In this document: piece after piece, positions 7,387 to 10,600 of the stretch
Layout of the letters: each line of letters starts with the position of its first letter
Numbering within the stretch: position 1 is the first letter of the stretch
From: Coxiellaceae bacterium
GTDB lineage: Bacteria; Pseudomonadota; Gammaproteobacteria; JAJRRL01
DNA length: 64,000 nt
NCBI GenBank assembly: GCA_047404195.1
Contig: JBDOIU010000008.1
Location: 65,105-129,104 of the forward strand
Direction: 5' to 3'
Notes under the pieces: model-generated
Told to the model about the DNA's origin: nothing
Seen by the model: the letters and a program-made list of their open reading frames with translations, nothing else
Databases searched by the model: none
Made by a program: the position numbers and the translations under genes

Positions 7387-7626
7387 ATGCGTAGGGATAT
7401 AACTGAGCTTCCTTTTGATATGGGAAAATATGCTCTAACAGAGGCTAAAAGGCAAAAATATGCTCAAAAAGCGGCTCAAAATGCTCAAAAAGCGGCTCAA
7501 AAAATCCATGAAATAACCGGTAAAGTTGAAGGGTTTCAGCAGAACGACATAAGTGAGGGGTTTATACCCCCCCCGCATACGCTCGCGCCATTGGGGGATG
7601 CACCTTATACGTCACATTCTGGGTAG
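7387..7626 (+). CDS. Short upstream ORF with good SD and KAAQ repeats, ending just past the C8 tract; possible alternative N-terminus of the giant kinase gene
   Basis: ATG 7387 preceded by AGAGGTGG; contains perfect 21-bp tandem duplication (7460..7501); overlaps start of 7553 ORF in another frame across C8 tract 7567..7574. Confidence 0.3.
   Translation: MRRDITELPFDMGKYALTEAKRQKYAQKAAQNAQKAAQKIHEITGKVEGFQQNDISEGFIPPPHTLAPLGDAPYTSHSG
7460..7501 (+). repeat. Perfect 21-bp tandem direct repeat x2 (ATGCTCAAAAAGCGGCTCAAA), in-frame (AQKAAQK x2)
   Basis: Read directly from sequence. Confidence 0.75.
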
Positions 7627-10600
7627 TGTGTCACGTTCGGATTCGATGTGTTTCATAAAAAAACTGGTAGATAGCAAAAATTACTCAAAGTTGATGGCAA
7701 AAATTATTAAGGATAATGGTTTCATATCATTTGCAGTAAAATTATTACTTCAAGACTATTACGTAGCAGATTTTGGCAAAGAGCGGCGGGGGAGAATTAG
7801 AGAAATCTCTCAAGAAGAGAAAGATCTAAAACGCATTCAATCAAAAAAATATGCGATTCGTATACTACGCAATTCGCTTGCTTTACCAGAGAATACTCAA
7901 GAAGTAGTTGAAACGCTCAGGGTGTGTTACTCTGGTGGAAGACCTAAGGAATACATAACTTGTGTTTTCGCAGCTATGTTACGTACAGAAGGCTGCGGCG
8001 TATATGATCGTGAATTTTATGCCGAGTTATTTAGCTTGTACACTGTTCTACCTACTCTTGAAGAAGAATTTATACCATCAGTCGATTTGACTTGGGATAT
8101 TGACATCTTGCTTGATTATGCATTTGAGTCAGAGGATCATAATATCTCTGCTGCGGCAATTGAGCGGATAAAAAGCATTGCTGTCAGTAGCGAGACACAA
8201 AAATGTGATTTAATCACTAGGGGCATTATTCATTGCATTATAGATTTGATGCAAAAACAGATCGCTATGCCATCCACATCGGGTTTAAAATATGCGCATA
8301 AAATAAGCTGTATTGGTTTGATTTATGCTTTAGTTGATAAAAATGACTGGATTTTATCATTATTTGTGTCTCATGGTGTGCTAGAGTTGCTAGTGAAATA
8401 CATATCAGAGGACTTTCCCAGGAAGCTGTCGTCTTATAATGAAGCGGATCATATCCTGGATGACATGTTATACCTGCGACTGATCAAACGTTTTCTCACT
8501 ATGACAACACTGAATAGCGTTTCGGTTGGTTTAGAGTCATTTATGCGATTTATACACAAATCACTATCTTGGCTGGTTTTTACTCACTTGCTCCCCATAA
8601 TGATGTCTTATTTGAGAGAGCTGACGTTATTTATCGCAGACCAACTAAAAGAACCGCGTTTACAACGTATTATTGTTGACAATGATTTGTGTCCTTTTTC
8701 GCATGACCAACATATACAAAGTTTAAGAAGGCAATACCAGGCTCCGGATACACGCAAATTCATGCATCGAGATTATGATGATGTCTGGGTCGAGGTTTAC
8801 AATGATTGGTCTTATTTTCCGATTAACTATAGATGGTCGCTATTAGTCAACATGTACCAGTCGGAATCAAATAGGGATTTTGTGCGTGCACAACTTAAGC
8901 AGCCTGGCATGAAAGACATGTTGCAGTATTCATTCCTATTAGGGAACAATCCATATGGAGCAAAGTGCTTGCAAATCGCACAGGAGATTAACCCAGACTA
9001 CCGTTTATGGACAAAACTCACCGTAGAGATTGCGATTAAAGGTGTATTTGCGAACAATTTTTTCCAATCTAATGGTAGGGATATGTGGCGTGCGGTGCTG
9101 GTTGCTACGCAGGTGCTGACAACGATTAACCAGGGCGAACCTCTTCCCGCTGAATACGAGCATGTTTTATCTTACATTCCACAAGGCGGACATCATGTTG
9201 GGGCATCTCAGATCTCTACTGTTTTTTTGCTTAGCATCGCAAAAGATAATCAGAAAAAGATTAAGCTAATCACGTTATTCCTCAGCACTTACGCCGCACT
9301 CAATACGCGCCTTTTAACTCAAATTCTTTCCGTTTATCGCATGCCTCGAACTTTTACTAATCGAGCTTTTACTATGTTTCCAATTTTGGGGTTACTTTTG
9401 TGTCCATCAGTACAGCTCATGGAAAAGTATGAAAGCTGTGGGGGTTTAGATGAGTATAGTGAAGAAAAATATATTTCTTTGCGTGAGCTTGTTGGTATAC
9501 TGTTATCACTAGTTAAAAGACAGCGTGTGGAAGCTAAGCGCATTTCATTGTCTGAGCACTTTTTATGCTCTCATCAAATCACAGAGTTCTACTATAGACT
9601 GTTGTGTCTTGTCACAAGAAAAAATCAGTTAACCGAGTATTTGCTATCGCGTGAGGAATATTCTAGTCACAGACTCGCAGACAGTATTGTTAATGAATTA
9701 GACCGACTTAGGAATGGGACTCTCTGGAATCGAGCTGGTGTCCAAGTGGCCTGGATGGAAACACTTTGGTATGCAAATATGCATTGGATTGAAAGATTTC
9801 AGAAGCTCCATCCACATCTCAGTGATGAGGTGATGCTACGTGATGAAGCTACTGAAGCTAATATGACTGAGACCGTTGATAAAGAGGTTTTGCAAATAGC
9901 ATTGATGATGAAGGAAAAAAGTTGGACTCATATTCAGTCTCGGCGTAGAATGAGGTCTTCGCCGAATATAGAGGATCTCATTACTCATGTTAACCTAGCC
10001 GATAATGATAAAAGCAATACGGAAAAGTTATGTCAGTATTTTTATGGAATAAATATCAATCAGCTATCAAAGCTTGTGGCAACAGTAGAGAAGCAATCAA
10101 CCTCAGATGATGTTCCTGGAATGTTTCGTGCTCCGCATATCTTATTTTTGTTAACAAAGTTTCTCTATCGATTTAAAGATGAAGGTATATGGATCGGTGG
10201 GCGAGGGTCGCTATCTAAGCTACATCGAAATCTCAAGATAAAGAAAGTGAGATCTTATATGCTCGAATTGAGAGGGTATTTTGAGACTAAAAAGATAGTG
10301 TATTGCATGCTGGATTTTTTGCGGTCAGATGCTGGACATCTAGATCTGCTAGAGAGTATCGTTAAGCGCTCAAAAGAATGTTTAGACTCGTTAATATATC
10401 ATCATGGTGTTGAGCTAATGATACAGTTGACATACGAAAATCGTCGTCGAGAGAGTGCGCTTAAATCAATTCGATGTATATTAGAGTTGTGTTTCGATAA
10501 GGAACCAGAGGCGACATTCAGAGAGGTACATTCATCTATACAAAAACTATTCCACTCGAGTGAACGTTTATCTCCACAAGACCTCAAGGTAATACATCCG

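Follow-up and report, generated by a model that had tools for sequence, protein, structure and literature searches.

A poly-C tract recorded at two lengths, and a probable homopolymer miscount, in the 5' region of a giant kinase gene of a Coxiellaceae bacterium

The giant kinase gene in the window (the whole 64-kb stretch of DNA analyzed here) is probably, with a likelihood that we put at roughly 60%, one gene that begins at ATG 7387 and has been split in this record by a homopolymer miscount. The length of the poly-C tract in its 5' coding region differs between two assemblies, and the C10 version restores a single open reading frame (ORF). In the arrangement that we propose, the giant kinase protein would be translated from ATG 7387, which carries a Shine-Dalgarno (SD) sequence, and translation would pass the poly-C tract as Pro-Pro-Pro and run on to the stop at 17560, giving a product of 3391 residues. 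The tract would have been recorded as C8, two bases short of the C10 of the independent assembly. The resulting shift would end the frame after 79 codons and leave behind a 3335-codon frame with no ribosome-binding site, for which the annotation would then have chosen the internal ATG 7694 as the start of the kinase. The original prediction, made from the letters of the window, had offered phase variation or a homopolymer error as the two possible readings of this region; this pair of readings is supported by the C10, and the error is favored on account of a second homopolymer (T7 in the other assembly) at which the window is also in the broken state. Whichever of the two holds, the mechanism belongs to a kind already known. 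The features discussed below are collected in Table 1.

Table 1. Coordinates of the features at the kinase locus and of the second discrepant homopolymer, in window positions
Feature	Position	Strand	Description
SD sequence AGAGGTGG	7376..7383	+	Serves ATG 7387, 3 bases downstream; read from the sequence
Mini-ORF	7387..7626	+	79 codons; stop TAG 7624-7626 in the window version
21-bp tandem duplication, ATGCTCAAAAAGCGGCTCAAA x2	7460-7480 / 7481-7501	+	Encodes AQKAAQN/AQKAAQK
Giant ORF	7553..17560	+	3335-codon open frame, one frame ahead of the mini-ORF
Poly-C tract	7567..7574	+	C8 in the window, C10 in SRR27445064_525; encodes Pro-Pro-Pro
Linker IRSRHWGMHLIRHILGSVSRSDSMCFIKKLVDSKNYSKL	7577-7693	+	39 giant-frame codons from the tract to ATG 7694
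Alternative giant-frame starts	7628..7696	+	GTG 7628, ATG 7646, ATG 7694
Eukaryote-type protein kinase domain	16769..17521	+	Residues 3073-3323 of the 7553-based ORF, C-terminal
T homopolymer	40806..40813	+	T8 in the window, T7 in Logan contig SRR27445064_271; served as calibrator

The same strain was located in the Logan short-read assembly of run SRR27445064 by means of exact-protein look-ups; such look-ups gave no match for the mini-ORF, the 3288-aa product, the msbA fragment, sucA, sucB, or sucD. Two further Logan contigs, beyond the two that meet at the kinase locus, bring the compared length to 40,833 positions. Over these, no substitutions and two indels were found, both of them in homopolymers; the G8 at 38487 and the T10 at 56150 were left out of this comparison. 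One indel falls at the poly-C tract. Logan contig SRR27445064_525 equals window positions 1..7598 apart from one gap at the tract, where it reads TATA-C10-GCATACG, and contig SRR27445064_93, which starts within the tract (six C and then GCATACG), equals positions 7569..22651 without any difference. The contigs share an overlap of 30 nt (k-1) that starts in the tract (the 30-mer CCCCCCGCATACGCTCGCGCCATTGGGGGA), and when joined they hold a single ORF of 3391 codons that starts at ATG 7387 and ends with the kinase frame. At the junction, the C10 fusion protein would read ...EGFIPPPR/IRSR, with a tryptic peptide VEGFQQNDISEGFIPPPR followed by IR/SR; the 79-aa product of the C8 version would carry the peptide ...IPPPHTLAPLGDAPYTSHSG. 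The C8 across which the original prediction had the mini-ORF meeting the giant ORF in another frame is present in the window as described. Contraction to C7 and expansion to C10 do both fuse the two ORFs, as had been foreseen, and C10 is the length actually recorded in the Logan assembly. An invariant C8, which had been named as evidence against the earlier reading, was not what we found: the tract is C10 in the Logan assembly of SRR27445064.

Logan drops k-mers that are seen only once (PMC12424806), so the 31-mers that span the C10 must each have been seen at least twice in SRR27445064. The failure of the two contigs to merge suggests that the reads hold at least one further variant at the tract, a circumstance that fits real heterogeneity as well. 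The break between the contigs had been considered as proof of heterogeneity and was downgraded, contigs of this sample being found to end in ordinary sequence too.

The other indel, in the T homopolymer, provided a site at which the intact state could be recognized. The T8 of the window creates the stop of an orphan repeat protein (38605..40815) and truncates it by 113 codons, and with T7 the frame remains open for 113 further codons. The 113-residue extension matches the protein's own internal repeats of about 48 residues (blastp E 2e-9 to 1e-6), and neither of the other two frames past the T tract gave a blastp match. Because the extension is homologous to the repeats of the protein itself, it is the Logan version that is intact at this site. 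The window thus holds the frame-broken state at both discrepant homopolymers, where it differs from the Logan assembly by -2 nt (poly-C) and +1 nt (T tract). It is because the second homopolymer of the same record is also in the broken state that a miscount is favored at the first: the two-base shortfall in the poly-C tract most likely reflects a miscount of the homopolymer in the assembly of the window, and we infer that the cause is technical and not biological. In 14 of the 16 homopolymers of at least 7 nt that were compared, the window and the Logan assembly agree, a point against the miscount, since homopolymer errors are thus not widespread in the record. A fusion of corC and lnt across an A10 at 56150-56159 is suspected to be a third homopolymer case.

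The SD sequence of ATG 7387 forms an anti-SD duplex of -8.2 kcal/mol, in line with the good SD claimed in the original prediction; this is among the strongest in the window, where most housekeeping genes have duplexes of -6 to -9.5 kcal/mol, the best housekeeping SD sequences being comparable in duplex energy to that of ATG 7387. A promoter scan upstream of 7387 found no sigma-70 consensus. Ahead of the tract, the mini-ORF scores 0.31 bits/codon, compared with 0.29 +/- 0.13 for real genes, and only 0.6% of equal-length spurious open stretches reach this value; the pre-tract part clearly resembles coding sequence. The first 63 codons of the mini-ORF most likely form the genuine N-terminal end of the giant kinase, and ATG 7387 is probably the start used in the cell. 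The mini-ORF also contains the perfect 21-bp tandem duplication that had been described at 7460..7501 (Tandem Repeats Finder [TRF]: 100% matches, score 86), and the duplication is unchanged in contig SRR27445064_525. That it is in frame is uninformative, since the frame survives any duplication of 21 bp.

The starts available within the giant frame are poor by the same measure. The anti-SD duplex is -0.5 kcal/mol at GTG 7553, -3.7 kcal/mol at GTG 7628, and -3.3 kcal/mol at ATG 7646, and the SD pairing of ATG 7694 is weaker still. Every internal start of the giant frame thus has an SD pairing of -3.7 kcal/mol or weaker, and the assertion that no candidate start of the giant ORF has a convincing ribosome-binding site holds. 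Two further in-frame starts, ATG 7598 and GTG 7628, were absent from the earlier account of this region. Some housekeeping genes of the window, for example mnmA and tgt, are likewise without an SD sequence. The NCBI annotation of the contig from which the window is taken makes the mini-ORF a separate 79-aa protein and starts the kinase at ATG 7694, giving a protein of 3288 aa. Such a pair of 79 aa and 3288 aa is the expected output of an annotation pipeline for a frameshifted orphan gene; the annotation could not detect a frameshift because the orphan protein gave no homologue.

The locus lies in a gene-dense, bacterial setting that includes lon, pmbA, mnmA, tgt-yajC-secDF, gltA, sdh, sucABCD, and miaB-phoH-ybeY-corC-lnt, and genuine pseudogene fragments occur upstream of it, namely one half of an msbA-like gene along with parts of a sodium:solute symporter. 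The relatives of PmbA that were found are only 34% identical. The giant gene is richer in AT than its neighbors. Its kinase domain matches PF07714 (E 9e-53) and PF00069 (E 4e-49), and its closest relatives are eukaryotic kinases together with metagenomic proteins that combine HEAT repeats with a kinase. A second giant HEAT/ARM and kinase paralogue, encoded at 45475..52317, shares 43% identity with the giant kinase across the C-terminal 395 residues; this paralogue has a canonical AAGGAG SD sequence and a TTGACA-17-TAGAAT promoter. The N-terminal part of the giant protein yielded no comparable relatives. No homologue of the N-terminal 700 aa or of the fused N-terminus was found in a search of 5.8 billion proteins, and the N-terminal 1200 aa matched only itself among 1.84 billion representative proteins. 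A relative of the locus was not found in the GTDB genomes, and JGI metagenomes gave no exact flank match at any tract length from 4 to 16. No RNA family from Rfam was found anywhere within the window. A single-sequence AlphaFold2 model of residues 1-450 of the 7553-based ORF had a mean pLDDT of 44 and was uninformative on the folding of the linker.

The alternative that survives best, which we regard as possible, is slipped-strand phase variation, in which the length of the tract would change at replication and the two assemblies would have sampled different majority states. Full-length protein would be made in the ON states (C7, C10, or C13), and the OFF states would be C8/C11 and C9/C12. The computed products are consistent with such a switch: C7, C10, and C13 fuse the mini-ORF and the giant ORF into frames of 3390, 3391, and 3392 codons, respectively, C8 and C11 end after 79 to 80 aa, and C9 and C12 terminate early after 90 to 91 aa. 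C8 and C10 are both on record for an otherwise identical strain, and the Logan graph fails to resolve exactly at the tract. The tract itself also has features that would suit a switch. It occupies codons 61-63, within the first 63 codons of the 5' coding region, the classical site for a translational switch, and its length is far beyond chance, with 0.03 (first-order Markov) to 0.11 (iid) runs of C8 or longer expected per 64 kb; it is the sole C run of at least 7 nt in the 64-kb window. It is built from CCC, a rare codon that accounts for 15% of Pro codons, and CCC-CCC is used in none of the 13 other PP/PPP motifs of the window. Even if the C8 is an error, a C10 run that is real would by its nature be prone to slippage within coding sequence. 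The G8 at 38487, the only other G/C run of at least 8 nt in the window, is likewise situated in the 5' part of an orphan gene, a position that would accord with phase variation.

Against phase variation, the assemblies also differ at the ordinary T7/T8 tract, and the window is broken at both sites; random sampling of states would give this outcome with a chance of about 1 in 4, whereas assembly error predicts it. In addition, the difference at the poly-C tract is 2 nt, C9 was not seen in the two assemblies, and in the collections searched the locus was found in no second sample and no relative. It is possible, though less likely than a miscount, that the poly-C tract serves as a true contingency switch with three outputs for a giant orphan HEAT/ARM-repeat kinase of eukaryote type. 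In that version, n = 7/10/13 would yield a long isoform from the SD-bearing ATG, n = 8/11 would yield 79 to 80 aa followed by a shorter kinase through reinitiation at GTG 7628, and n = 9/12 would yield a peptide of 90 to 91 aa; the G8 that precedes the orphan repeat protein at 38605 might, with the same likelihood, be a second such locus. If the tract truly varies in cells, its changes in length would switch a giant eukaryote-like kinase by phase variation, a classical mechanism.

It is unlikely that the locus consists of two genes, an SD-bearing 79-residue protein or leader followed by a kinase that starts at GTG 7628, ATG 7646, or ATG 7694. The C8 would then be native, the kinase would be fed by termination-reinitiation, and the C10 of the Logan assembly would be a minor variant or an error. 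Codon usage past the tract speaks for this arrangement and against a native fusion. The linker scores -0.01 bits/codon, a value as low as that of only 1.5 to 1.9% of real coding windows, with a likelihood ratio of about 7.8 in favor of non-coding sequence; just past the tract, the mini-ORF frame outscores the giant frame (likelihood ratio, about 3), and the sequence from 7628 to 7693 scores 0.04 bits/codon. It is because of this non-coding-like linker that the two-gene arrangement retains its small probability. The stop of the mini-ORF also adjoins a possible restart, with GTG 7628 one base past it (TAG-T-GTG, 7624-7630) and ATG 7646 of the giant frame 19 nt past it in the C8 version. The lack of an SD sequence in several housekeeping genes and the two proteins of the NCBI annotation point the same way. 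Against this stand the 31-mers of the C10 version, each seen at least twice, together with the 3391-codon ORF that C10 creates, and the intact state of the Logan version at the T7/T8 site. Moreover, the giant frame stays open through 47 codons on the 5' side of ATG 7694, which chance would produce with a probability of about 0.05 to 0.1, and the 79-aa product has no homologue anywhere searched.

CCC-C is a site at which tRNA-Pro tends to slip by +1, and ribosomes stall at PPP motifs, as is known from studies of EF-P and m1G37. At a true C8, recoding could make some fusion protein of full length, either by a tRNA-Pro +1 frameshift on CCC-CCC-CCG at a PPP stall or by RNA polymerase slippage. Such recoding is nevertheless very improbable: an SD-like GAGGGG is located 6 nt 5' of the tract and the shift needed is +1, toward the giant frame, but no such mechanism is needed, being superfluous because a C10 DNA version exists, the spacing of the GAGGGG differs from the 3 nt of prfB, and no stimulatory structure was found around the tract, where folding was no better than that of shuffled sequences (z +1.16 for RNA and -0.04 for DNA). 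On the same fold values, a structured frameshift stimulator and hairpin-driven slippage were both rejected.

If the kinase gene is indeed one gene split by a miscount, the corrected gene model would be 7387..17560 plus two C and would encode a 3391-residue kinase with a normal ribosome-binding site, and the publicly annotated 79-aa "protein" would be no gene. The record would then contain at least two frame-breaking miscounts, and other seeming pseudogenes or fusions in the record, corC-lnt for one, would have to be treated with caution.

Each of these readings has a counterpart among known systems. The differences between the two assemblies are like assembly homopolymer errors, in that the only ones over 40.8 kb are two homopolymer indels and the window is broken at both; a point of difference is that just 2 of the 16 compared homopolymers of at least 7 nt differ. 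The slippery CCC-CCC-CC, the +1 target frame, and the SD-like GAGGGG resemble the programmed +1 frameshifting of prfB and tRNA-Pro. Unlike in prfB, the GAGGGG is spaced at 6 nt and not 3, and the shift site is without an in-frame stop or a rare codon; of the elements of a programmed +1 frameshift, the slippery run is present and a stimulator at the canonical spacing is absent. In the C8 version, the stop of an SD-bearing ORF adjoins a giant frame that lacks an SD sequence, as in termination-reinitiation coupling, but this arrangement vanishes in the C10 version. Poly-G/C contingency tracts are found in Neisseria, Campylobacter, and Helicobacter. Compared with contingency loci, the tract described here is known in two consensus lengths only (C8 and C10), a difference that may be technical. 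A close parallel is offered by the Chlamydia trachomatis cytotoxin gene CT166, in which a poly-G tract at gene positions 29-37 is ON at G9 and OFF at G10 and for which a start farther downstream is often annotated (PMC4514472). As in CT166, a G/C run of 8 to 10 nt lies within the first 60 or so codons of a large gene of host-interaction type, the length of the run decides between a full product and an early stop, and annotators use a downstream start.

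Homopolymer length affects a second gene in the window (coordinates are collected in the table). In an assembly comparison, the T tract near the end of the orphan repeat-protein gene reads T8 in the window record versus T7 in contig SRR27445064_271 of Logan, a short-read assembly of the same strain. With T7, the protein gains 113 residues and the gene then reaches about position 41158. These residues resemble the tandem repeats of about 48 aa found in the orphan protein itself, and the annotated end of the gene is therefore probably a frameshift artefact. Elsewhere in the window, a single ORF runs from corC into lnt without a change of frame, and the junction (...RFKKKMPQL...) spans an A10 run. 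If the run were A11, corC would stop at KKKNASA* and lnt would begin at its own ATG. The A10 run may be a third homopolymer miscount, or the fusion may be real.

Apart from the poly-C tract of the giant kinase locus, the only G/C run of at least 8 in the window is an intergenic G8, which follows the sucD terminator and precedes the orphan repeat-protein gene by about 100 to 110 nt. Because the run is flanked by the hexamers TTGTAT and TATTTT, 19 nt apart, it could be a promoter-spacer tract.

Gene debris lies upstream of the giant kinase locus. It is identical in the Logan contig, so the msbA-like and symporter fragments are genuine pseudogenes rather than products of faulty assembly. Small repeats were also observed. 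An imperfect 23-nt direct repeat (GCAAAAATTACTCAAAG.. / GCAAAAATTATTAAGGA..) straddles ATG 7694, placing the annotated kinase start within a small duplication. Logan contig SRR27445064_912 terminates within a CAGTCA array, and a 33-bp tandem repeat is present at the beginning of ORF 63011..63673.

Features in the window outside the poly-C tract
Feature	Coordinates	Size or copies	Remark
Gene debris	4341-6931
msbA-like ABC transporter fragment	5084..6088		C-terminal half only
Sodium:solute symporter fragments	6250..6931	two or three
Direct repeat	7674-7719	23 nt	imperfect
G8 tract	38487-38494
Orphan repeat-protein gene	38605..40815
T tract	40806-40813
Promoter-like TTGACA-17-TAGAAT	45384
Second giant HEAT/ARM-repeat protein	45475..52317	2280 aa	same eukaryote-type kinase domain
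corC-lnt ORF	54630..56969	779 codons
A10 run	56150-56159		minus strand
CAGTCA array	62634-62687	8.8 copies	hexanucleotide
33-bp tandem repeat	62998-63067	2.1 copies	94% matches

The second giant protein shares 43% identity over 395 aa with the giant kinase of the locus in its kinase domain. Its gene has a canonical SD and the promoter-like element listed in the table, and is identical in sequence between the window and Logan contig SRR27445064_271. Outside the window, Logan contig SRR7054527_92362 and ENA contig ERZ27247936 k141_403040 encode a 508-aa protein that combines HEAT/ARM repeats with a kinase domain showing 49% identity. Its neighbours (rpoZ, spoT and IS481-type transposases) are clearly bacterial, which shows that the combination of HEAT/ARM repeats with this kinase domain is also present in other uncultured bacteria.
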